Shown here: positions 22,732 through 56,971 of the stretch, in pieces
Layout: each line of letters opens with the position of its first letter
Numbering within the stretch: position 1 is the first letter of the stretch
Sequence record: NZ_LC532224.1
Strand: one strand, 5' to 3'
Length of the DNA: 64,000 nt
Source: a plasmid
The notes under the pieces: model-generated
The model's database searches: none
Seen by the model: only the letters and a program-made list of their open reading frames with translations
Told to the model about the DNA's origin: nothing
Made by a program: the position numbers and the translations under genes

Positions 22732-24232
<1,501 letters not shown>

Positions 24233-42903: not shown

Positions 42904-43823
42904 CACAATCCTTACGCTGTAGGGGCCTGTTTGTGTTATCACTGCTTCCGGTTTTTACTTCGCACAACCCGGCAGGTATCCGGTCGCCCGGGCGTCCTTT
43001 GCGGTCTTGTTCGCCCTTCGCCTGAATTACGTCAAATCCCTTTCACTACCCGGCCGCAGGGTGACACCTCCCCTTTTCTCCGGAAGCGAAAGAGGAAGAA
43101 CAGTTTAACAGCCCGGATCCTCAATAATTTTCGCGTAACGGACTAAATAACCGGTTTATGCAGCTTCTGATAACCACAGACCGCGATAGAATAAAACGTC
43201 TGGTGAGGAACCGGAGTGTTATGTAAGCGGGGGGTTTAACTGGGTATCTGTGTAGTCCTATTTAGCCAGATATCCCGAATAAAAACCTCAACGATTAGGT
43301 AAACGAAATGGATGGATTCTGGTCGATGTTCTGTTTGTTTGTCGTGGTAGTTTCACTGCATAAAGCCCTTTCTGTAGCAGCAGCACGAGCAGACGCAGCA
43401 AAATTAAATATGCTTCTCAGAATGAGAAAGTTTAAAAAGTAGCTTTCAAGACATCTGAGAATTCTTTTAAATCCTCAGAGGAAGTTATATGTTTAGGCTA
43501 TTTGCAAACTAAGGTTGGAATTCCATCATTCTAGCCTTAGATCTTTGATCAAGTGAAGTTGCTCACTTGGTTGGATTTTACCGTTTCCTGACGGCTTTTC
43601 AGAAGCGAGGGCTGGTTGGAATGCCTTCCAGCTAGAAGTCTTGCAGATGCTCTCCGGGCATTAACTCATTGTCGAATCTGCACCAGTATCACTAGGTTGT
43701 TGAGCGGGCGATTAGCTTTTTCACTGAGCCGCTGTACACTCGACTGCTTCAAGAAGCACTACTTACCATTTGCCTGCCGTAAGGTCTGTTCTTAGCTGGA
43801 TTTTTTTGGGAGGATACGCAGTC

Positions 43824-44810
43824 ATGACAACTCAATCCAGCTCAATACAATACGCTTACGCGCTAGACGGCGAGGGCACCCTCACGCACATTGGCGCTGC
43901 CCTGCGCTCACATACTTACACCTGCCCAGGTTGTAAGAGCCCCCTGACCCCGGTAATGGGCGAGTTCAACGCTAAGCACTTTCGCCATTCGGAAGAATGC
44001 TGTGCCCTTGAAACCTATCTTCACAAGTGCGGCAAAGAAGCATTCTTCTATCGCTACCAACAAGCTCTCAGCCGTGAAATGCCTATTAGCCTTGAGCTGG
44101 AGCGCCGGGTTGCCTGTAATGGTTCTCGTTTAGCCTTGGTTAGAGACGAAGCACGTCAGTGCGTAAAATCCGTGCCTGCACGCTACAACTTGACTCAATT
44201 TTTCGATCAGGCAGAGCTGGAAAAACACGATAAGGTCACAGGGCTGCGACCAGACGTGATGTTGTATGATACGACTGGCGAAAGGCGTTGCTACGTAGAG
44301 ATTTGTGTCACACACCCCTGCTCTCAAGACAAGATCGAAGCCGGTATCCCGATTCTTGAGTTTAAGGTCCAATCTGCCTCTGATATTCAGATGTTGCTTA
44401 CCGGGGCCTACTCGATCAAGGAGAAGATCCTGAGAGTATTCAACTGGCTTCCCCCGTTTCAATCTGTGGACACCTGTAGCGGCGTCTGCTCAGTAGGTAA
44501 CGTGGATATGTCTGTCTGGAGTTTAAGTGGTTCCGGCCGACTCAACGAACAAACGATGCCGCTCGCTGAAGTGGATTTAACAATCAATTCTGACGTGAAC
44601 ACATGGCCTAGATCGTTAGGGGCCGCTGAGCTGGCTGATAACTTACGAGCTTTTATCCGTCACGCCGATCCTCATTCACTATTTCCCAACTGCATTATGT
44701 GCGAGCAAGCAGGCCGATGGGAGGATGGCTATCTGCAATGTCACAGTAAGGCAAAGATCGTTCCCTACACCGAGGCCCGTCAGTGCGCCAATTACAAGGT
44801 TAAGGCATGA
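43824..44810 (+). CDS. CoiA-like zinc-ribbon plus PD-(D/E)xK-type nuclease-domain protein
   Basis: Strong SD GGGAGGA before ATG(MTTQSS). CPGC...G....KHFRH (CoiA N-terminal pattern). RPDVMLYD...VEICVTH nuclease-core-like block. Cys/His-rich C-terminus. Stop overlaps the helicase ATG (ATGA). Confidence 0.5.
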   Translation: MTTQSSSIQYAYALDGEGTLTHIGAALRSHTYTCPGCKSPLTPVMGEFNAKHFRHSEECCALETYLHKCGKEAFFYRYQQALSREMPISLELERRVACNGSRLALVRDEARQCVKSVPARYNLTQFFDQAELEKHDKVTGLRPDVMLYDTTGERRCYVEICVTHPCSQDKIEAGIPILEFKVQSASDIQMLLTGAYSIKEKILRVFNWLPPFQSVDTCSGVCSVGNVDMSVWSLSGSGRLNEQTMPLAEVDLTINSDVNTWPRSLGAAELADNLRAFIRHADPHSLFPNCIMCEQAGRWEDGYLQCHSKAKIVPYTEARQCANYKVKA

Positions 44811-46471
44811 CCAAAAGACTGACTTGGGAGCAGAAAAGTATTGTCAGCCATGACACCGGACATGCGTTGGTAAAAGCCGTACCTGGTAGCGGGAAAACAA
44901 CCACACTTGTAAAGCGCGTTGAGCGGCTGGTCAAGACGGGAACTGATCCTCGCTCCATTCTGATCCTGATGTACAACAAGTCGGCGCAGGTGAGCTTCAC
45001 GGAGAACTTGAAGACGGCACTGATGTCGAGCGTGATTCCAGAAATCCGCACGTTCCACAGCTTGGCCTTAAAGATTGTTGGTTACGGAGAACGCCAACAG
45101 ATAATCAAGAAGAAAGACCTCATTACTCCAAGCGACTACCGCTATGAGCAACTGGTAAAGCAAGCCTACCGCTATGGCTTTGACCATGAGGCGAATTATA
45201 TTGACCCCAATGAAATTGAAAACTTCGAGCTGTTTATTGCTCGCTGCCGGGCGGCGGCCGTAACTCCTGTTGATGCTGCCAATGATCCAACGTTCAGCAA
45301 CATCAAACGGGAGTTTATTCACGCCTATGGCCGCTATTGTGAGCTGCTGGAGGAAAACAGTCTGCGAACCTTTGATGACTGTTTGATTGAGGCTGTCGCA
45401 CTGTTGCGTAATGACAGCAGCCTTGGTGCCCACTTCAAGCACATCATTGTTGATGAATATCAGGACGTTAACCTGATACAGCATGACATGACCCGCTTGC
45501 TATCTAAGTCGGATACGTCGGTTATGGCTGTTGGTGATGTTAACCAGTGTATTTATGAGTGGCGTGGTGCTCGACCAGACTTTATCGGCGGACTGTTTGA
45601 AAGGCACTACCCGAATACGAAGGTGTTTCAACTGTCATGCACGTTCAGATTTGGCCATGAGCTTTCCTTGATGGCTAACTCGGTAATTCGGCGCAACTCT
45701 ACAAAGCTGACCAAGCTTTGTGTCAGTCATCCTAGCACCCCCAAAACAGAGGTCAGATTGCACTTTGATAACTGCCTATCCAAGGTGCTATCAAACCTCT
45801 CGGTGAGCAGTGGAACACAAGCCATATTGTCCCGCACTAAGGCGAACCTTGCTGAGGCGGAAATTGCTTTACGCCTGTGTGGGCTACCTTATCGCTACCT
45901 CAATGGTTCAAGCGCATTACACACCCGCACCGAAATCGGGATACTGGTAGTTGGCGTCTTGCTGTCTGTGTACGGCGATCTGCGGCTACTGGAAAACCAT
46001 CCCAACAAACAAGCGATTGTTTACGGCTTTCTGAAGGAGGCTGGTTTTAGATGGCAGAAAGGGCAATTCAAAGCGGCGCTCAGTGGATTGATGGCTCCGC
46101 ACGCCGACCTATGGTCTGCTCTAGGTCAGTTATTCGAGGGCGCACAATACCAAAAAGATCGGCTGGGCAGGCTCGCCACTATCTGCCAGAAAGACGGAGA
46201 GGAAACGCCTGCTATCGATGTGTTACGACGCCTGAGTATGGAGGGTTTCATTGATAGTGTTGGCTCTGAGGGTGTAACTCGCACTGGATCGAACGACCAG
46301 CAACGAGGGGTCGTGAGGATCGGGGAGCTACTTGACTCCAGTAAGATCGATTCCCGCACGTTTTTAAACCTTATCTTGAATCCAGGCGAGGCTGCTACTG
46401 ACTGCGATCCCTTCATCCTTTCCACACTGCATGGTTCCAAGGGGCTGGAGTGGGATAACGTAATACTGATC
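44807..46471 (+). pseudogene. UvrD/PcrA-like superfamily-1 helicase, N-terminal 555 codons (gene split by transposon)
   Basis: Walker A AVPGSGKTTTLVKR. Motif II IVDEYQD. The ORF reads through the Tn IR into IS5075. Confidence 0.8.
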
Positions 46472-46492
46472 GGGGTCGTCTCAGAAAACGGA

Positions 46493-47819
46493 ATCTATGG
46501 TCACTCCCGTTTTTGCAACACCGATTTTGACGACAAGTTGGCTTGCTTGAATCTATCCGGCGTCTGAATGGGATTTTATTCCCGCGCCTTGATGAGTTCC
46601 GCGCCTGATGAACCTCCAGAAAATATACGGCTTCAATGAGCCTTTCCGTTTTACAGGTTCCTCAACAGGCCGGTGGGCCGTTAGTATCATCAATATCAGT
46701 ATTCGCAAAACCAGATCAGTAATTCTTTAAACCGGTGTATTTCTGCCGTTATGCTACATAAGTTTGCTGTCGTGCCGTTAGGGCCCAGGCTATTCTGGCC
46801 AGCTTGTTTGCCAGAGCACAAGTGACGACAAAGTTGCTTTTCCGGCACAGTAAATCCCTGACCCAATCGGCCAATTTGCCAGACTGGTGTTCCAGTTTTT
46901 GTATGAATACCCTGGCACATTGAACCAACAAAGTTCGGATCTTTTTATTACCTCGCTTACTAATTCCCAGCAATGTCGTCCTACCTCCCGTGCTGTACTG
47001 CCGAGGTACAAGCCCTGTTGCCGCCGCAAAGTCACGGCTGCTGGCGTACTGCTTCCCGTCGCCAATCTCAGTTGAAATAGTACTCGCTGTCAGTGTTCCG
47101 ACGCAGGGAATGCTCAGCAAGCGCTGTCCAACCTCATCTTCGTCCAACTTTCGTTTCAACTGGGATTCCAAATCTTTAATCTGCTCAACAAGATAGTGAT
47201 AATGCTGTTGTAATTTCAGCAATAACTGGCTGAGGTAAAGAGGCAAACTATTATCCTCAAGAATGGTACTCAGTCGGCTAATAACGGCAGCTCCTCGGGG
47301 AACGCTAATGCCAAATTCCAGCAGAAAAGCATGCATTTGATTGGTTGTTTTTACCTTATCCTGAACCAGGGATTCACGGACACGATGCAGAGCCCGCATT
47401 GCCTGCTGAGATTCCGTTCTGGGCTGCACAAAACGCATAGACGGACGCGATGCAGCTTCACAAATAGCTTCGGCGTCGACAAAGTCGTTTTTATTGCTTT
47501 TAACGAACGGGCGGACAAATTGTGGTGATATCAGCTTTGGGGAATGCCCCAACTCTTCCAACTTGCGTGCCATAAAGTGAGAACCGCCACAGGCTTCCAT
47601 TGCGATGGTTGTAGCGGGGCATGTCGCCAAAAATTCGATCAACTTTGGCCGGGTAAATTTTTTACGGTAAACAGCCTTCCCGCGACGATCCTGGCAATGA
47701 ATATGGAAAGAGTTTTTACCCAGATCGATACCAATGAGCGCAATGTTTTCCATGATAGTTCTCCGAATGAAAGCCTGTCCTCAGCATAGTACCGGGAAGG
47801 AGGGAGTGACCATCTCATT
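46493..47819 (-). mobile_element. IS5075/IS4321-type IS (IS110/IS1111 family), 1327 bp, copy A, inserted in the transposon IR
   Basis: Identical to copy B in inverted orientation. IS110-family elements make no duplication. Confidence 0.85.
46749..47753 (-). CDS. IS110-family transposase (334 aa)
   Basis: MENIALIGIDLGKNSFHIHCQDRRGKAVY... is identical in both copies. Confidence 0.9.
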   Translation of the reverse strand: MENIALIGIDLGKNSFHIHCQDRRGKAVYRKKFTRPKLIEFLATCPATTIAMEACGGSHFMARKLEELGHSPKLISPQFVRPFVKSNKNDFVDAEAICEAASRPSMRFVQPRTESQQAMRALHRVRESLVQDKVKTTNQMHAFLLEFGISVPRGAAVISRLSTILEDNSLPLYLSQLLLKLQQHYHYLVEQIKDLESQLKRKLDEDEVGQRLLSIPCVGTLTASTISTEIGDGKQYASSRDFAAATGLVPRQYSTGGRTTLLGISKRGNKKIRTLLVQCARVFIQKLEHQSGKLADWVRDLLCRKSNFVVTCALANKLARIAWALTARQQTYVA

Positions 47820-47831
47820 AAATAAAGCACG

Positions 47832-48389
47832 CTAAGCGTGCGTGGAGGCTGGCACCCAGCGGTACAGCGTCGGAATGGACACGCCGAGGTTCTTGGCCAC
47901 GTCCTTGGGCGGCACCCCGCTGGCCAGCAGCTTCTTGGCCGACTCGATCTTGCTGTCGGTCATCTTCGGCTTGCGGCCGCCTTTGCGGCCGAGCTGCTTG
48001 GCGACTTCCAGCCCGGCGCGGGTGCGCTCGACGGTCAGCTCGCGCTCCATTTCGGCAAGGCTCGCCATGACGTGGAAGAAGAACCGCCCGGATGGTGTGC
48101 CGGTGTCGATGGAGTCGGTGAGGCTCCTGAACTGGACACCGTGCTTGTGCAGATCGCCGACCAGATCGACCAGTTGCTTGACCGACCGGCCCAGCCGGTC
48201 GAGCTTCCAGACGACCAAAGTATCGCCTTCGCGCAGCATTTCGAGCGTCTTGGCCAAGCCAGGCCGGTCTGCCCGCGTGCCACTCACCTTGTCCTCGAAG
48301 ACCTTTTTACATCCGGCCTTGCTCAAGGCTTCGCGTTGCAGCTCCAGGTTCTGATCCTGCGTCGAGACGCGCGCATAGCCAATCAACAT
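47832..48389 (-). CDS. tnpR: Serine recombinase / resolvase TnpR
   Basis: GYARVSTQDQNLELQ catalytic Ser motif and C-terminal HTH. The gene ends at the IR. Confidence 0.85.
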   Translation of the reverse strand: MLIGYARVSTQDQNLELQREALSKAGCKKVFEDKVSGTRADRPGLAKTLEMLREGDTLVVWKLDRLGRSVKQLVDLVGDLHKHGVQFRSLTDSIDTGTPSGRFFFHVMASLAEMERELTVERTRAGLEVAKQLGRKGGRKPKMTDSKIESAKKLLASGVPPKDVAKNLGVSIPTLYRWVPASTHA

Positions 48390-48754
48390 GGCTTGTCTCG
48401 CGCCCGGTCGATGCGTTCCTGCATCGCCTGCATCACTTCTTCGTGGGTGTACGATCTGGCGTTGGCGTCGGTGGCTTGCCGCAGGGCTTCCTCAACCTCG
48501 CGCGTCATCCGCTCGTAATCCTCCGGCCACAGCGCTTGCTCCATGCGCAGCGACGCCTGACTCAGCAGGTGCAGCAGGCTGAACAGCCGCATGTCGTTGG
48601 TGGCGACGATGCGCTCCCGAATCTGCTCCTGAATAGCTTCGCTAGCCCGATGCGCTTGTGGTGTGGCAGTCCCCTCGTAGTCAGCGGGGAATTCCGCTTC
48701 CTCGGCAATCCTTGCCCAGGCGCTGGCCAGCGCCTCGATGGTTGACGTGCTCAT
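48383..48754 (-). CDS. Hypothetical 123-aa protein upstream of tnpR
   Basis: Start MSTSTIEAL immediately after the upstream stop. Confidence 0.4.
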   Translation of the reverse strand: MSTSTIEALASAWARIAEEAEFPADYEGTATPQAHRASEAIQEQIRERIVATNDMRLFSLLHLLSQASLRMEQALWPEDYERMTREVEEALRQATDANARSYTHEEVMQAMQERIDRARDKPC

Positions 48755-49263
48755 TTCCGCCGCTCCTGTGCTCTTTGGCGAATCAACCGGCCAAGGGGCC
48801 TCGACGCGAAAACCAGCAGCATCACGCCTATCGGATACCAGGTCGAGAAGACCACCAAGGCATCGAAGGCTGGCCGTCCGGTGTTGGTAGGCAGTACGGC
48901 GGTCACAGCCATCAACCCGCCGACCGTCCAGATGATGCGCCACACGTAGGGCATCACGCGGGGCACGTAGCCGTCATCGAAAGCGGTCTGGTAGTAGCGG
49001 CGCAGGCCGCGCTCGGCAAGCGCCTGGCGCTGCCGCTCCGACAGCGCATCCGTCCGGCCATACCAGCGCCGGAATGGTGGACAGCGCAGCAGCAAAGGGG
49101 TGAAGAGGATCATCACCGCCACGATCGCGACACCCCACGCCATGACGGCGCCGGCATCGGGCCGCTTGGCGTTCTCGATCACGGGCGCGAAGACGCCCGG
49201 AGCACCGATCATCCAGAACAGCGCAATGTGCTGATGGAAGGAGAGCTTCATTTGCTCATCCAC
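48751..49263 (-). CDS. Membrane protein (170 aa)
   Basis: Three or four TM helices. Confidence 0.45.
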   Translation of the reverse strand: MDEQMKLSFHQHIALFWMIGAPGVFAPVIENAKRPDAGAVMAWGVAIVAVMILFTPLLLRCPPFRRWYGRTDALSERQRQALAERGLRRYYQTAFDDGYVPRVMPYVWRIIWTVGGLMAVTAVLPTNTGRPAFDALVVFSTWYPIGVMLLVFASRPLGRLIRQRAQERRK

Positions 49264-49574
49264 TTGCGCAGCAGGCGCTTTTTCAGGGAGGCGCGTTCTT
49301 GCGGGTTGCGTCCCTTGTGATTGGCGATGCGATCCGCCGTGGCGGCCTGGCGCTTGACGGGCCAGTAGGAGCGGCCATCCTTGCCCATCGACCAGACGCT
49401 GCTGGCCTGGTTTTCCAGCAGGGGCAGATGGGCGCTCAGGGCTTCGGGCGACGCGCTGGTCAGCGCCGTGCGCTCACGGGTGCGCCAGCGCTGATGCCAG
49501 AGCTTCTTGTTCTCGCGCTCGCTGCCGCAGGTCGTGTGCCCGACGATGGGTGTTTTGCGGCGGCTGCGGCTCAT
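49248..49574 (-). CDS. Small basic protein (108 aa)
   Basis: Arg/Lys-rich. Confidence 0.35.
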   Translation of the reverse strand: MSRSRRKTPIVGHTTCGSERENKKLWHQRWRTRERTALTSASPEALSAHLPLLENQASSVWSMGKDGRSYWPVKRQAATADRIANHKGRNPQERASLKKRLLRKWMSK

Positions 49575-49828
49575 AACGTAGTGGTCTCCAAGAACATTCA
49601 GGACTGATCCCAGGCGTCGATGGTCAAGACCTGATCGGCAGGACAGGCGGCTACGCGGTCGGGAACTGGATGGTGTTCAGTCTCATGCCGACCCCATTCG
49701 ATTGATCGCGTCGCTTGCGGCACGCTGCGACGCAAGGAGGTTTGCGACCTGGTTTAGCAGCCGTGTCCGCTGCATGTCTGTTACCTATCTCCCCGACCGC
49801 TCATTGGACCAACTCCAGAGATTGGGCT

Positions 49829-50185
49829 CTATCGCTCAGCCAATACGAAACCGGCATTGGCTGATGCCACAACCGAGACTAACACAAATGGCTCGGTACC
49901 TGTATTTCGCGCCCCGTGCACTTGGCCCGGTCTTGCCACGGCTATCTCACCTTCCCTGAGGGCACGAACAATCCCATTGCCCTGAAAGTAATCAGCCATT
50001 CCCGACAAAACAGTCCACGTGTCTTGGCCGTGAGGATGAATGTGAGCCGCAATTTCCTGCCCGGGATGGACATGCCAAACCACGATAATTGAGTCTCGGG
50101 TTTCAAGCACAACGGAACGAATAGGCTCGCCTTCGGACGGCTGAACATACTCGGCTACAGAAAATATTCTCGATTCAACAGTCAT
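49829..50185 (-). CDS. Cupin-domain protein
   Basis: WHVHPGQEIAAHIHPHGQD...GQVHGARN two-His cupin motifs. Confidence 0.6.
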   Translation of the reverse strand: MTVESRIFSVAEYVQPSEGEPIRSVVLETRDSIIVVWHVHPGQEIAAHIHPHGQDTWTVLSGMADYFQGNGIVRALREGEIAVARPGQVHGARNTGTEPFVLVSVVASANAGFVLAER

Positions 50186-50576
50186 CGGAGATCCCTCTTT
50201 CACAGTTGTCGTTACGGTCTTCATCGTCGGCATCCTGACGCACGGCGGGCAATTGCTGGAGCAACGCCGGCAGCCATTCCTGTACCGTCTCCCACACCAC
50301 ATCGAGGTTGATGTCGAAATAGCCGTGAGCCATGCGATTACGCATATTGCGCATGCTGCGCCACGGCACGTCGGCATGCGCCTGGGTGAACTCGACGTAG
50401 CCATCCATCACCTTTGTGGCCGCCTCGCCGATGACGATCAGGCTCATGATGACGGCCTGCTGGGTGCGCTTGTCGGCCAAGAAGTCGTCCTTGGCCATCC
50501 CTTCCACGAAGCTGCGCGCATCGGTTGCGGCCTGCTGAATGTGGTCGAGGTAATCGGGCAGGCGGTTCTCGCTCAT
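50175..50576 (-). CDS. hepT: HepT-like (DUF86/HEPN) toxin
   Basis: R(N)xxxH motif RNRMAHGY near the C-terminus. Overlaps the mntA stop by 4 nt. Confidence 0.7.
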   Translation of the reverse strand: MSENRLPDYLDHIQQAATDARSFVEGMAKDDFLADKRTQQAVIMSLIVIGEAATKVMDGYVEFTQAHADVPWRSMRNMRNRMAHGYFDINLDVVWETVQEWLPALLQQLPAVRQDADDEDRNDNCERGISDDC

Positions 50577-50869
50577 ATCGGTTGCGCCTCCGCGAGCACC
50601 TTGGCCCGGAACTTCGGCGGCAGGTCGCCGGGAGTCAGCAGATCGACGTCAACGCCGAGCAGCGATTTCAGTTCTTCTTCCAAATCGCCCAAGTCCAACA
50701 ACGTGGCACCGGGCAGCGCATCGACCAACAGGTCGAGGTCGCTGCCATCCCGGTCGGTGCCATGCAGCACCGAGCCGAAGACGCGCGGGTTCGCGGCGCG
50801 AAAGCGGCCTACCGCTTCACGCACTGCGCTTCGCTTCATGTCAAGCACAACAGACGGTCGCATGCGCAT
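50573..50869 (-). CDS. mntA: MntA-like minimal nucleotidyltransferase antitoxin
   Basis: GSVLHGTDRDGSDLDLLV nucleotidyltransferase signature (GS...D.D). Confidence 0.7.
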   Translation of the reverse strand: MRMRPSVVLDMKRSAVREAVGRFRAANPRVFGSVLHGTDRDGSDLDLLVDALPGATLLDLGDLEEELKSLLGVDVDLLTPGDLPPKFRAKVLAEAQPI

Positions 50870-51021
50870 CCTTTCTTATCGAAACTCGTTGAGATGATAT
50901 GCAATCAAGAATAGAATTTCAAGAACTATTTTCGAGAATCGCAATGCCTTGATTCCCGTGCCGCGCCGGTTGCCTTGGCGGGCTTGTCACAAACCTACGT
51001 TTTCAAGAAGAAGGAAACCGC

Positions 51022-53988
51022 ATGCCCCGCCGTTCGATCCTCTCCGCCGCCGAGCGCGAAAGCCTGCTGGCGTTGCCGGACACCAAGGATGAGTTGATCC
51101 GTCACTACACGTTCAGCGAAAGCGACCTCTCCATCATCCGGCAGCGGCGCGGCCCGGCCAATCGGCTGGGCTTCGCGGTGCAGCTCTGCTACCTGCGCTT
51201 TCCCGGCGTCATCCTTGGCGCTGATGAGCCACCGTTCCCGCCATTGCTGAGACTGGTCGCCAACCAGCTCAAGGTCGGCATCGAAAGCTGGGACGAGTAC
51301 GGGCAGCGTGAGCAGACCCGACGCGAGCACCTGGTCGAGCTGCAAACGGTGTTCGGCTTCCAGCCGTTCACGATTGGCCACTACCGGCAGGCTGTCCAGT
51401 TGCTGACCGAGCTGGCCATGCAAACCGACAAGGGCATCGTGCTGGCCAGAGCCTTGATCGAGCACCTGCGGCGGCAGTCGGTCATTGTGCCCGCCCTCAA
51501 CGCCGTCGAGCGGGCGAGCGCCGAAGCGATTACCCGCGCCAACCGGCGTCTCTACGACGCCTTGGCTGAGCCGCTGACGGACGTGCATCGCCGTCGCCTC
51601 GACGATCTGCTCAAGCGCCGCGACAACGGCAAGACGACGTGGCTGGCCTGGCTGCGGCAATCCCCGGTCAAACCGAACTCGCGGCACATGCTGGAACACA
51701 TCGAACGCCTCAAGGCGTGGCAGGCGCTCGACCTGCCCTCCGGCATCGAGCGGCTGGTTCACCAGAACCGGCTGCTCAAGATCGCCCGCGAGGGCGGCCA
51801 GATGACGCCCGCCGACCTGGCGAAGTTCGAGCCGCAGCGGCGTTACGCGACCCTGGTGGCGCTCGCCATCGAGGGCATGGCCACCGTCACCGACGAAATC
51901 ATCGACCTGCATGACCGCATCCTGGGCAAGCTGTTCAATGCCGCCAAGAACAAGCATCAGCAGCAGTTCCAGGCATCCGGCAAGGCGATCAATGCCAAGG
52001 TGCGGCTGTTCGGGCGCATCGGCCAGGCGCTGATCGAGGCCAAGCAAGCGGGCCGCGATCCGTTCGCCGCCATCGAGGCCGTCATGTCCTGGGATGCTTT
52101 CGCCGAGAGCGTCACCGAAGCGCAGCGGCTCGCGCAACCCGAGGACTTCGATTTCCTGCACCGCATCGGCGAGAGCTACGCCACGCTGCGCCGCTACGCG
52201 CCGGAATTTCTCGACGTGCTCAAGTTGCGGGCCGCGCCCGCCGCCAAGGACGTACTCGACGCCATCGAGGTGCTGCGCAGCATGAACAGCGACAACGCCC
52301 GCAAGGTGCCCACCGACGCGCCGACCGAGTTCATCAAGCCGCGCTGGCAGAAGCTGGTGATGACCGACACCGGCATCGACCGGCGCTACTACGAACTGTG
52401 CGCGCTGTCGGAGCTGAAGAACGCGCTGCGCTCCGGCGACATCTGGGTGCAAGGCTCGCGCCAGTTCAAGGACTTCGAGGACTACCTGGTGCCGCCCGCG
52501 AAATTCGCCAGCCTCAAGCAGGCCAGCGAATTGCCGCTGGCCGTGGCCACCGATTGCGACCAGTACCTGCATGACCGGCTGACGCTGCTGGAAACGCAGC
52601 TCGCCACCGTCAACCGCATGGCGCTGGCCAACGAGCTGCCGGACGCCATCATCACGGAGTCGGGCCTGAAGATCACGCCGCTCGATGCGGCGGTGCCCGA
52701 TACCGCACAGGCCCTGATCGACCAGACGGCGATGATCCTACCGCACGTCAAGATCACCGAATTGCTGCTGGAGGTAGACGAATGGACGGGCTTCACCCGG
52801 CACTTCGCCCACCTGAAGTCAGGCGACCTGGCCAAGGACAAAAACCTGTTGCTGACCACGATCCTCGCCGACGCGATCAACCTGGGCCTGACCAAGATGG
52901 CGGAATCGTGCCCCGGCACGACCTACGCCAAGCTGGCCTGGCTGCAAGCCTGGCACATCCGCGACGAAACCTACGGGGCGGCACTGGCCGAGCTGGTCAA
53001 CGCGCAGTTCCGACATCCCTTCGCCGGGCATTGGGGCGACGGCACCACGTCATCGTCGGACGGCCAGAACTTCCGCACCGGCAGCAAGGCCGAGAGCACC
53101 GGCCACATCAATCCGAAATACGGCAGCAGCCCAGGGCGGACGTTCTACACCCATATCTCCGACCAGTACGCGCCGTTCCACACCAAGGTCGTGAACGTCG
53201 GCGTGCGCGACTCGACCTACGTGCTCGACGGCCTGCTGTATCACGAATCCGACCTGCGGATCGAGGAGCACTACACCGACACGGCAGGGTTCACGGACCA
53301 CGTCTTCGCGTTGATGCACCTGCTGGGCTTCCGCTTCGCCCCGCGCATTCGTGACCTGGGCGACACCAAGCTCTACATCCCGAAGGGCGATGCCACCTAC
53401 GAGGCGTTGAAACCGATGATCGGCGGCACGCTCAACATCAAGCACGTCCGCGCCCATTGGGATGAAATCCTGCGGATGGCCACCTCGATCAAGCAGGGCA
53501 CGGCGACGGCCTCGCTGATGCTCAGGAAGCTTGGCAGCTACCCGCGCCAGAACGGCCTGGCCGTCGCCCTGCGTGAGCTGGGACGCATCGAGCGCACACT
53601 GTTCATCCTGGACTGGCTGCAAAGCGTCGAGCTGCGCCGCCGCGTGCATGCCGGGCTGAACAAAGGCGAGGCGCGCAACGCGCTGGCCCGCGCCGTGTTC
53701 TTCAACCGCCTGGGGGAAATCCGCGACCGCAGCTTCGAGCAGCAGCGCTACCGGGCCAGCGGCCTCAACCTGGTGACGGCGGCCATCGTGCTATGGAACA
53801 CGGTCTATCTGGAGCGGGCCGCGAACGCCTTGCGTGGCCACGGTCAAGCCGTCGATGACGGCCTGTTGCAGTACCTGTCGCCGCTCGGCTGGGAGCACAT
53901 CAACCTGACCGGCGATTACCTCTGGCGCAGCAGCGCCAAGATCGGCGCGGGCAAGTTCAGGCCGCTACGGCCGCTGCAACCGGCTTAG
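51022..53988 (+). CDS. tnpA: Tn21-subgroup Tn3-family transposase TnpA (988 aa)
   Basis: [31 protein letters not shown]... is near-collinear with Tn21/Tn501 TnpA as I recall it. The gene ends at the IR. Confidence 0.95.
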
Positions 53989-54001
53989 CGTGCTTTATTT
54001 A

Positions 54002-55328
54002 ATGAGATGGTCACTCCCTCCTTCCCGGTACTATGCTGAGGACAGGCTTTCATTCGGAGAACTATCATGGAAAACATTGCGCTCATTGGTATCGATCTGG
54101 GTAAAAACTCTTTCCATATTCATTGCCAGGATCGTCGCGGGAAGGCTGTTTACCGTAAAAAATTTACCCGGCCAAAGTTGATCGAATTTTTGGCGACATG
54201 CCCCGCTACAACCATCGCAATGGAAGCCTGTGGCGGTTCTCACTTTATGGCACGCAAGTTGGAAGAGTTGGGGCATTCCCCAAAGCTGATATCACCACAA
54301 TTTGTCCGCCCGTTCGTTAAAAGCAATAAAAACGACTTTGTCGACGCCGAAGCTATTTGTGAAGCTGCATCGCGTCCGTCTATGCGTTTTGTGCAGCCCA
54401 GAACGGAATCTCAGCAGGCAATGCGGGCTCTGCATCGTGTCCGTGAATCCCTGGTTCAGGATAAGGTAAAAACAACCAATCAAATGCATGCTTTTCTGCT
54501 GGAATTTGGCATTAGCGTTCCCCGAGGAGCTGCCGTTATTAGCCGACTGAGTACCATTCTTGAGGATAATAGTTTGCCTCTTTACCTCAGCCAGTTATTG
54601 CTGAAATTACAACAGCATTATCACTATCTTGTTGAGCAGATTAAAGATTTGGAATCCCAGTTGAAACGAAAGTTGGACGAAGATGAGGTTGGACAGCGCT
54701 TGCTGAGCATTCCCTGCGTCGGAACACTGACAGCGAGTACTATTTCAACTGAGATTGGCGACGGGAAGCAGTACGCCAGCAGCCGTGACTTTGCGGCGGC
54801 AACAGGGCTTGTACCTCGGCAGTACAGCACGGGAGGTAGGACGACATTGCTGGGAATTAGTAAGCGAGGTAATAAAAAGATCCGAACTTTGTTGGTTCAA
54901 TGTGCCAGGGTATTCATACAAAAACTGGAACACCAGTCTGGCAAATTGGCCGATTGGGTCAGGGATTTACTGTGCCGGAAAAGCAACTTTGTCGTCACTT
55001 GTGCTCTGGCAAACAAGCTGGCCAGAATAGCCTGGGCCCTAACGGCACGACAGCAAACTTATGTAGCATAACGGCAGAAATACACCGGTTTAAAGAATTA
55101 CTGATCTGGTTTTGCGAATACTGATATTGATGATACTAACGGCCCACCGGCCTGTTGAGGAACCTGTAAAACGGAAAGGCTCATTGAAGCCGTATATTTT
55201 CTGGAGGTTCATCAGGCGCGGAACTCATCAAGGCGCGGGAATAAAATCCCATTCAGACGCCGGATAGATTCAAGCAAGCCAACTTGTCGTCAAAATCGGT
55301 GTTGCAAAAACGGGAGTGACCATAGATT
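54002..55328 (+). mobile_element. IS5075/IS4321-type IS, copy B, inserted in the other transposon IR at the same IR position
   Basis: Junction CTTAGCGTGCTTTATTT|AATGAGATGG ... CCATAGAT|TCCGTTTTCTGAGACGACCCC. Confidence 0.85.
54067..55071 (+). CDS. IS110-family transposase (334 aa)
   Basis: Identical to the copy at 46749-47753. Confidence 0.9.
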   Translation: MENIALIGIDLGKNSFHIHCQDRRGKAVYRKKFTRPKLIEFLATCPATTIAMEACGGSHFMARKLEELGHSPKLISPQFVRPFVKSNKNDFVDAEAICEAASRPSMRFVQPRTESQQAMRALHRVRESLVQDKVKTTNQMHAFLLEFGISVPRGAAVISRLSTILEDNSLPLYLSQLLLKLQQHYHYLVEQIKDLESQLKRKLDEDEVGQRLLSIPCVGTLTASTISTEIGDGKQYASSRDFAAATGLVPRQYSTGGRTTLLGISKRGNKKIRTLLVQCARVFIQKLEHQSGKLADWVRDLLCRKSNFVVTCALANKLARIAWALTARQQTYVA

Positions 55329-55348
55329 CCGTTTTCTGAGACGACCCC

Positions 55349-55728
55349 TGATCGGGCTGAATGAGCAGGAATTTCCTGGCGGCAAACCCGATGATGTTTA
55401 CAGCGTTCGCACATCGATGAACACCCCTCCGGCCGAAGAGGAAATCGAGGAGGAACGTCGGCTGTTTTATGTCGGTATCACTCGCACAAAACAGCAGCTA
55501 AATCTGGTGGTCCCTCTTGATGAAGGGCTTGCGCGGTGGCTCAAAAACCGCTGGGATAGCACCCCGAAGAAGTCACCGATAGCTACTCGCTTCGTCTATG
55601 AGGCTGGCTGGACTGCTTGTGCGGTTACCAGTGATGCGATCTATAACAGCACGGTAGAGAAACAGAAGGCTGACTTCAGCAAGTTTCACCAATGGTATCT
55701 AAGAGATCTTCAGCGGCTAAAAGTCTAG
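55349..55728 (+). pseudogene. UvrD-like helicase C-terminal fragment (distal to the transposon)
   Basis: Reads in frame from the TGATC duplication (IGLNEQEFPGGKPDDVYSV...) and contains helicase motif VI RLFYVGITRTKQQL. Confidence 0.8.
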
Positions 55729-56358: not shown

Positions 56359-56971
56359 CCAACTTTTGCACGAAACGGCACATCTTCCAAAAGAGGGTTG
56401 TCAACCAAGTTTTGCACAAAACGGACTTTGATCCATTTCTAACTAAAATCTACAATCCAACCTCAGATTGCAAATAGCCTATGTTTATTACAGATGGTAT
56501 GGTTCGTGTTTTTGTTTATTCGATGGCAACTGTACTCTTTCTGCCGCTTGGCTTGTTGAAAAGCACGTGGTGGTTTTCACCATTGTTTGCGATAGCTGCT
56601 ATTGATTACTTAATGTTTCTGCGTCGACAAGGCTAGTTGCTGAACCTCATACCTCAGAGCAATCTGTATGTTTTTTACACCACTGGTTAAAAGGTCAGGC
56701 TACGTTCCTGACGTTTTTTAAAAAACAGTTTTATGTTTGATGCGTTACTGGTCTGTCTGGTAACCCAGTGGTACATTACCATTATTAAGGCTGGCTGGCG
56801 GTGGTGCATCATGCTTAAACGACCCTCTCTGAGCGTACTTTCCGACAGTCCTGTGCACCGCACCACTTACCCGGCAGGCCTATGTCTTGGTTATTCTTCG
56901 TTGTACCTTTTTCTTCAGCTTTATCCCTGACATGTCTGTCTGAACAGTTCTAAGCAAACCGGAATGTTGTC

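Follow-up and report, generated by a model that had tools for sequence, protein, structure and literature searches.

The stretch of plasmid DNA considered here (sequence record NZ_LC532224.1, 64,000 nucleotides, called the window below) carries at positions 46472–55348 a unit of 8877 bp, which is composed of a 6223-bp transposon of the Tn3 family and of one insertion sequence (IS) in each of its terminal inverted repeats (IRs). That is to say, the unit is the already catalogued ISPa38, in a variant form with a 232-bp deletion, together with IS4321, and it lies in the catalogued context of a plasmid of incompatibility group HI2 (IncHI2), the backbone of which extends through the window from about 35.9 kb onward. 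First of all, each arm of the unit is built in the same way, with 21 nt of outer IR followed by an IS of 1327 bp and then by 17 nt of inner IR. The two arms form a perfect inverted repeat of 1366 nt (46472–47837 against 53983–55348), which is the one outstanding feature of a repeat scan, and joining the IR halves by script gives the same 38 bp, GGGGTCGTCTCAGAAAACGGAAAATAAAGCACGCTAAG, at both ends; the split can be placed at either 21/17 or 22/16, with an ambiguity of one T. Outside the outer IR halves lies a 5-bp direct repeat, TGATC (46467–46471 and 55349–55353), and the ends have the form expected in the Tn3 family, namely IRs of about 38 bp that start with GGGG, are identical at both ends and are bordered by a 5-bp duplication. 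The first-pass annotation of this DNA, made from the sequence alone, had described the joined halves as a repeat of Tn21 type, and the repeat is indeed found intact in IS-free plasmid copies; we take it to be the IR of Tn21 itself, with which its targeting by IS4321 and IS5075 is consistent. When the unit and one TGATC are removed, a 679-aa open reading frame (ORF) for a UvrD-type helicase is restored (44807–46471 joined to 55354 onward), and the view that the unit inactivated the helicase gene is borne out both by this restored frame and by the empty site in plasmid R478. The features are, from left to right, as follows.

44807–46471, plus strand: 5′ part of the helicase gene (Pfam UvrD-helicase), the last 5 nt being the left TGATC copy
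46472–46492, plus strand: left IR, outer 21 nt, GGGGTCGTCTCAGAAAACGGA; the intact IR is known from IS-free copies
46493–47819, minus strand: left copy of IS4321, 1327 bp, with its transposase at 46749–47753 (minus strand) and a 3′ non-coding region (NCR) of putative seekRNA type at 46493–46748
47820–47836, plus strand: left IR, inner 17 nt, AAATAAAGCACGCTAAG, containing the tnpR stop codon
47832–48389, minus strand: tnpR, a 185-aa small serine recombinase of the Hin/Gin type (Pfam Resolvase and HTH_7)
48383–48754, minus strand: orf123, acidic, annotated in public copies, overlapping tnpR by 7 nt
48751–49251, minus strand: orf166, basic, with hydrophobic membrane-like segments, annotated in public copies
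49248–49574, minus strand: orf108, basic (pI 11.6), annotated in public copies
49575–49828, no strand: non-coding gap of 254 bp, outside the mapped res region
49829–50185, minus strand: cupin gene, 118 aa (Pfam Cupin_2; public annotation)
50175–50576, minus strand: hepT, predicted HEPN RNase toxin, 133 aa (Pfam HepT-like, 9e-27)
50573–50869, minus strand: mntA, predicted antitoxin, a minimal nucleotidyltransferase (Pfam NTP_transf_2; start at 50863 in the public annotation)
50873–51009, no strand: res region between mntA and tnpA, with site I and accessory half-sites
51022–53988, plus strand: tnpA, DDE transposase of the Tn3 family, 988 aa, Tn21 subgroup, with its stop codon inside the right IR
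53984–54000, minus strand: right IR, inner 17 nt (read from the sequence)
54001–55327, plus strand: right copy of IS4321, 1327 bp, with its transposase at 54067–55071 and the 3′ NCR at 55072–55327
55328–55348, minus strand: right IR, outer 21 nt (read from the sequence)
55349–55728, plus strand: right TGATC copy (55349–55353) and 3′ part of the helicase gene (read from the sequence)

The identity of the unit is seen from its public copies. At least 80% of the 8877 bp is contained in 165 plasmid records, the best of which are 100% identical, and the NCBI annotation of these best matches gives the names ‘Tn3-like element ISPa38 family transposase’ and ‘IS110-like element IS4321 family transposase’. 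The record MH909331 (Leclercia plasmid p707804-NDM), which matches the unit at 100%, serves in the literature as the reference for ISPa38 (PMC6848029). ISPa38, for which the name TnPa38 has also been proposed, is 6455 bp long with eight genes, and is known from P. aeruginosa, from pFBAOT6 and from other hosts (PMC12466754, PMC3735179). The window copy shares with ISPa38/TnPa38 (e.g., in pFBAOT6 and in P. aeruginosa DK2) the 38/39-bp IRs and the gene set of tnpR, three ORFs, cupin, hepT, mntA and tnpA, and it has 99.9% nucleotide identity to the pFBAOT6 copy across both arms. It differs in its length of 6223 bp instead of 6455 bp, with a 232-bp deletion at about 50206, and in the presence of IS4321 in both IRs. 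In the alignment to pFBAOT6, the deletion has taken away a 57-aa ORF and replaced the last 5 codons of hepT, while the cupin gene is intact.

Both the transposon free of its IS copies and the uninterrupted helicase gene, which the first-pass annotation had suggested looking for in related plasmids, turned out to be present there. Searches with queries made from the reconstituted ends showed that uncapped copies, in which the unsplit 38-bp IR leads into an unchanged interior, are common, being found at 100% identity in many plasmids; two that were fetched are 6223 bp long, have duplications of their own (TGTTA and AGGTA) and are 3 single-nucleotide polymorphisms (SNPs) away from the window transposon. 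The empty helicase site occurs with 100% identity in R478 (NC_005211.1), and the gene is uninterrupted in 604 records. When the 3-kb flanks are included with the unit, a coverage of at least 80% is reached by about 18 records.

Several observations concern the surroundings of the unit. In a common IncHI2 lineage (e.g., NC_024983.1, 7990–17770), the same TGATC site is occupied by the left arm of ISPa38 as far as 50967, after which a mercury transposon of the Tn5053 family follows; in this derivative, the tniA-end IR adjoins position 57 of the right IS4321, with tnpA and 56 bp of the IS deleted, and an internal relic of a Tn21-type IR in the mercury transposon bears IS5075. In the IncHI2 backbone of the window, a 26-nt inverted repeat (92% complementary; 43494–43519 and 56456–56481) flanks the helicase region, with its two halves 12.9 kb apart. 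Collinearity of the window with p707804-NDM does not extend upstream of about 35.9 kb; an IS26 copy at 23413–24232 is 100% identical to the IS26 copies of that plasmid.

The two IS copies, which are mutually inverted, do not differ in sequence (100% identity), and both transposases read away from the transposon. The transposase is a DEDD enzyme of the IS110 family, in which Pfam recognises PF01548 and PF02371, and it reaches 341 bits against the NCBIfam model NF033542 (IS110 RNA-guided transposase), the cut-off of which is 140. By definition, members of the IS1111 group have subterminal IRs of 11–13 bp, extensions of about 7 and 3 nt beyond them, and a long NCR downstream of the transposase gene (PMC11187229). 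All of these are found in the present element: the 12-bp subterminal IRs are ATGGTCACTCCC and GGGAGTGACCAT, the ends at the 22/16 split read TAATGAG-ATGGTCACTCCC and GGGAGTGACCAT-AGA, i.e., with extensions of 7 and 3 nt, and 256 nt of NCR follow the stop codon. Membership of the flanking elements in the IS1111 group, as expected at first pass, is supported by Pfam, by NCBIfam and by the 93.1% identity to a copy named IS5075 in pSTm-A54650. The label ‘IS5075-type’ is imprecise in view of the same figure, since the window IS is identical to copies that the NCBI annotation names IS4321.

IS4321 and IS5075 target the IRs of Tn21-family transposons (Partridge and Hall 2003, as summarised in PMC11187229 and PMC8269217). 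In agreement with the first-pass view that an element of the IS4321/IS5075 group splits both IRs at the same nucleotide in a specific orientation, the position and orientation of the IS are constant at three IRs, namely the left and right ones of the window and the mer-side IR of pSTm-A54650. Two segments of the NCR correspond to this target. The 10-nt segment AAAACGGAAA (55168–55177) is identical to the IR bottom strand across the insertion point, a match length that was reached by 5 of 500 shuffles; the 7-nt segment TATTTTC (55195–55201) equals the top strand across the insertion point and, being reached by 123 of 500 shuffles, is not significant alone. The 7-nt match lies 27 nt after the 10-nt one, and the two overlap at the junction and occupy the two sides of an internal loop. 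Their order (the top strand is paired by the earlier segment), the junction overlap and the placement in the loop are as in other IS1111 members (PMC11187229), which is suggestive of an insertion of IS4321 that would be guided by a 3′-encoded seekRNA, by analogy with those elements. In addition, when the right and left ends of the IS are joined (55301–55327 and 54001–54003), the sequence reads TTGCAA-17 nt-GATAAT facing the transposase gene, and this would be the junction promoter of sigma-70 type that is expected for the circular intermediate of an IS1111-group element.

Doubly capped copies are also found elsewhere, in unrelated plasmids, with duplications of their own (CAGTA, TACCA, TCGAT, TTATA and ATTGA(T)), as well as at a site in trbG. 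The states of capping refer to the sampled loci and are not counts over the whole plasmid collection. The best explanation of this distribution is recurrent capping in situ, after each transposition, because a shared junction is seen both capped and uncapped, because the IS4321 variants differ and because insertions into IRs are frequent. As regards the first point, the tnpA-end junction at the trbG flank is identical at 279 of 280 positions between pFBAOT6, in which the IR is intact, and three enterobacterial plasmids, in which it is capped. As regards the second, different IS4321 protein variants cap different elements. As regards the third, about 900 IS4321 insertions have been recorded (PMC11187229), and IS5075 made four independent insertions into IRs in one hospital outbreak (PMC8269217).

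The same distribution could be read in another way, that is, the doubly capped 8877-bp unit may itself still be mobile, with TnpA using the outer 21-nt halves or bridging the split IRs. Near-identical capped units (2–6 differences per 8877 bp) do lie at at least six sites, each with a 5-bp target site duplication (TSD) of its own (one possibly of 6 bp), and in every complete capped copy examined both ends are capped by the same IS variant. The TnpA of Tn3-family transposons needs a contiguous 38-bp IR, and the IS puts 1327 bp between the halves. Moreover, the same transposon-flank junction exists in both states, uncapped copies at a distance of just 3 SNPs are common, and IS4321 and IS5075 enter IRs very often, as the counts above make clear. 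On this evidence we regard a mobile capped unit as very unlikely and prefer repeated capping in situ. It can reasonably be inferred that capping has immobilised the transposon, because 1327 bp separates the outer from the inner half of each IR. At one locus (NZ_CP074184.1, 1–600 and 9478–10077), the capped transposon stands between inverted duplicates of a trbG segment with palindromic flanks, which could stem from intramolecular transposition or from an assembly artefact.

The interior of the transposon agrees in most respects with what had been described at first pass. It is a cryptic Tn3-family transposon with an MntA/HepT pair, as Pfam confirms, and tnpR and tnpA end at opposite IRs, both reading outward; the basic protein, the membrane-like protein and the 123-aa ORF running into tnpR correspond to orf108, orf166 and orf123, none of which has a match in Pfam, NCBIfam or PADLOC. 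The cupin gene is also present according to Pfam, with an extent of 118 aa in the public annotation instead of the 191 aa of the maximal ORF. TnpA contains DDE_Tnp_Tn3 and an N-terminal DUF4158 (Pfam, 527 and 191 bits) and scores 1314 bits against the NCBIfam model transpos_Tn3 (cut-off 500), and the first 380 nt of tnpA are 78–92% identical to many tnpA genes of the Tn21 subgroup, with 87.8% for TnAs3, these values being identities and not a tree. The collinear order res-tnpR-tnpA that is typical of this subgroup is absent here, the two genes being divergent and at opposite ends. That order is typical of the subgroup and does not define it, because TnSod9, which is placed there by PMC7157771, has a divergent layout too. 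The gene order had been called unusual at first pass; it is not unique, since it is common to TnSod9 (PMC7157771) and to a relative on a Sulfuriferula plasmid.

As for the res subsites, two non-coding intervals had been proposed for them, 50870–51021 and 49575–49828, of which the former holds the res region (50873–51009) and the latter has neither half-sites nor a promoter-like site. Site I is a 26-bp dyad, TTGTCACAAACC-TA-CGTTTTCAAGAA, at 50984–51009, 12 nt upstream of the tnpA start, and it is the only complete recombinase-type dyad in the window. Repeats resembling accessory half-sites lie at 50876, 50914 and 50927 and overlap divergent promoter-like hexamers at 50889–50922, and the blocks of res are conserved in the Sulfuriferula plasmid element, which is only about 75% identical overall. 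A natural hybrid transposon in K. pneumoniae pINF118_1 (NZ_CP083776.1) joins the left arm of ISPa38 to a tnpA and a right IR of TnShfr1 type: to the left, 2 of 3184 bp are mismatched, and from 51004 onward, a point 7 nt rightward of the central TA, the divergence is about 13%; no matching duplication borders its ends, and its right IR is of a different type. Judged from the sequence, this hybrid is a signature of recombination at site I of res. Another variant of IS4321 (WP_000427620) sits in each of its two IRs.

Furthermore, three elements of the Tn5053/Tn402 family with differing 25-bp IRs (in pSTm-A54650, pUO1 and Aeromonas pKAM330_4) are inserted at 50967/8 (±1 nt), 16–17 bp from site I, and insertions of the Tn5053 family are known to cluster in the resI-resII part of res sites of the Tn21/Tn501 type (PMC7765201). 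From the dyad, the conserved blocks, the hybrid breakpoint and these three insertions of res-hunting elements, res is placed in the mntA-tnpA intergenic region and not at 49575–49828. The competing placement, with res in that 254-bp gap upstream of orf108...tnpR and the toxin-antitoxin (TA) pair between res and tnpA, has in its favour that the gap is the only other sizeable non-coding stretch and stands at the head of four overlapping ORFs ending in tnpR; in scans of the window, however, the gap showed no promoter-like site, recombinase half-site, dyad or Rfam match, the hybrid is identical through it and switches only at 51004, and all three Tn5053-family insertions avoid it for 50967/8, which makes this placement highly unlikely. 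In a variant with an 84-bp deletion (NZ_CP045019.1 and hits H175–H179), corresponding to 50926–51009 of the window, the TTTCAAGAA repeat at 50917 is fused to the one at 51001; these copies should be defective in resolution because the left half and the core of site I are removed.

The location of res between mntA and tnpA also determines how the position of the TA pair is to be described. The pair is directly beside res, with the mntA start (50863 or 50869) at most 10 nt from the first conserved res block at 50873, and it lies between res and tnpR, on the side of the accessory sites and co-oriented with tnpR, with site I facing tnpA. According to the generalisation for Tn3-family TA pairs, the pair follows closely on the downstream side of site I, tnpR being adjacent to site III, and in divergent elements it is expressed in the direction of tnpA (PMC7157771). 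The pair had been placed at first pass between res and tnpA, at this conserved location; with res at 50873–51009 it falls between res and tnpR instead and therefore departs from the generalisation, keeping the adjacency to res and not the position downstream of site I. The marks of a type VII pair are present: HepT has the Rx4H motif (RNRMAH) followed by GY, MntA has GSX10DXD (GS...DLD), the antitoxin gene mntA is upstream and overlaps hepT by 4 nt, and the Pfam scores are 94 bits for HepT-like and 37 bits for NTP_transf_2. On these features, MntA and HepT presumably function as antitoxin and toxin. A PDB sequence search with HepT returned no match. MntA (50573–50863) matches the PADLOC candidate defence system PDC-S09 with 90 bits, and HepT has no match in PADLOC.

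TnpR scores 242 bits against the invertase Gin of phage Mu, to which it is about 60% identical across 182 residues, as compared with 107 bits against the gamma-delta resolvase. Since the TnpR of the Sulfuriferula relative is 83% identical, the Gin-like recombinase is a trait of the family. A plasmid ‘recombinase’ beside intI1 was tried as a Tn21 TnpR comparator and set aside as a different, partial and uninformative protein. It might be supposed that TnpR is a DNA invertase flipping a segment of the element, for it retains the His associated with hyperactivity, and its crossover-like site I resembles hix/gix (two 12-bp inverted half-sites, a 2-bp core, ...AAACC / GTTTT...). An unresolved ISPa38 cointegrate has also been reported in P. 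aeruginosa (PMC12466754). Hin/Gin-type inversion takes place between two inverted crossover sites flanking the invertible segment, and the single complete 26-bp dyad in the 64-kb window leaves site I without an inverted partner, for which reason an invertible segment is rejected here; besides, the central dinucleotide TA is symmetric, the extra half-sites beside site I resemble the accessory sites of resolvases, and the breakpoint of the natural hybrid at the centre of the dyad points to recombination between separate elements. For these reasons, TnpR is read as a resolvase with a Gin-like sequence, and an inversion system is extremely unlikely.

A composite transposon, made up of the two IS4321 copies and moving the interior, can be dismissed as practically negligible: an identical IS pair does flank a 6.2-kb segment, but the 5-bp duplications border the outer IR halves (GGGG...) and not the IS ends, elements of the IS1111 group move as circles into a specific target without such duplication (PMC11187229), and the IR target sequence would be needed at each new site.

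Taken as a whole, it is highly probable that the ISPa38 variant inserted into the IncHI2 helicase gene and that IS4321 then capped both IRs. In this process, the 6223-bp variant would have entered the UvrD-type helicase gene by replicative transposition, making the TGATC duplication. One intergenic control region would combine res with divergent promoters, from which tnpA would be transcribed rightward and a putative operon mntA-hepT-cupin-orf108-orf166-orf123-tnpR leftward; cointegrates would be resolved by TnpR at site I, the hix-like 26-bp sequence shortly before the start of tnpA, and MntA/HepT, as a type VII pair, would penalise the loss of the element. After the insertion, IS4321 would enter each 38-bp IR at a fixed position and in a fixed orientation, guided by a 3′-encoded seekRNA which, by analogy with other IS1111 members, would pair with both IR strands; the split ends would be unusable by TnpA, and the element would stay locked unless the IS copies were excised precisely. 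The sequences themselves show the anatomy, the identity to known elements, the empty site, the uncapped copies and the position of res; we infer the order of events, the immobilisation, the seekRNA guidance and the TA function.

Several points weigh against this explanation or parts of it. The seekRNA reading rests on short matches, and the fold of the NCR is not unusually stable (z-score −0.4). An Rfam scan of 46300–55500 (E≤1) matched no family. The occurrence of the doubly capped unit at at least six TSD-flanked sites could mean that the capped element still moves. The accessory half-sites of res do not form clear dyads. Finally, HepT and MntA reach 37 and 36 bits against NCBIfam equivalog cut-offs of 60, and the C-terminal tail of HepT is non-native, having been created by the 232-bp deletion.

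A more far-reaching idea can be offered tentatively, as one that is rather less likely to be right than wrong: in ISPa38-type elements, the Gin-like recombinase, the hix-like site I and the accessory half-sites may form a cointegrate resolvase system and, at the same time, double capping may be an RNA-guided lock that is reversible, the 38-bp IRs being restored and the transposon re-armed when IS4321 is excised precisely with the help of its seekRNA. If true, the recombinase of ISPa38 would be a natural intermediate between invertases and resolvases, and a reversible IS4321 lock would explain why doubly capped copies that are nearly identical lie at many target sites. The practical weight of the analysis is a matter of annotation, for which the label ‘ISPa38 (6223-bp variant) with IS4321 in IRL and IRR, inserted in IncHI2 uvrD-like helicase gene’ is proposed, and its by-products are of modest specialist interest. 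For a subset of IncHI2 plasmids, the insertion can mark the lineage, the empty site being far commoner. What is added to the catalogued elements is the map of res, the Gin-like TnpR, the exception in TA placement, the 232-bp deletion variant and the evidence of recurrent capping in situ.

In comparison with known systems, the IS of the window is like IS4321 and IS5075 in its length of 1327 bp, its DEDD transposase, its 12-bp subterminal IRs, its 3′ NCR and its fixed position and orientation in the IR. With the Hin/Gin/Cin invertases, TnpR shares protein sequence (about 60% identity to Gin over 182 aa), whereas the system differs from theirs in having one site per element, a symmetric TA core, accessory half-sites and a context of cointegrate resolution. 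Among the Tn3-family elements of Lima-Mendez et al. 2020 (PMC7157771), TnSod9, on the megaplasmid of Shewanella oneidensis MR-1, is alone in carrying a HEPN/MNT pair, and the comparison with it was made by the table in that paper and not by sequence. Like the window element, TnSod9 belongs to the Tn21 subgroup, has tnpR, toxin and antitoxin genes pointing leftward and tnpA rightward, and carries its HEPN/MNT pair beside the tnpA-proximal control region; unlike TnSod9, the window element has a cupin gene and three ORFs between the TA pair and tnpR. Tn3 also has tnpA and its recombinase gene divergent from one res region, with site I on the tnpA side and the accessory sites on the tnpR side, but the window element contains about 2.5 kb of passenger genes between res and tnpR, its TnpA and IRs are of Tn21 type, and its recombinase is Gin-like rather than Tn3/gamma-delta-like. 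The Sulfuriferula nivalis plasmid element (3416–7636) is a compact form of the same design, with tnpR leftward at one end and res and a rightward tnpA at the other, in which a DUF5397 / ‘virulence factor’ gene pair replaces mntA, hepT, cupin and the ORFs; because a different gene pair occupies that place, the comparison suggests that the res-proximal slot is exchangeable.

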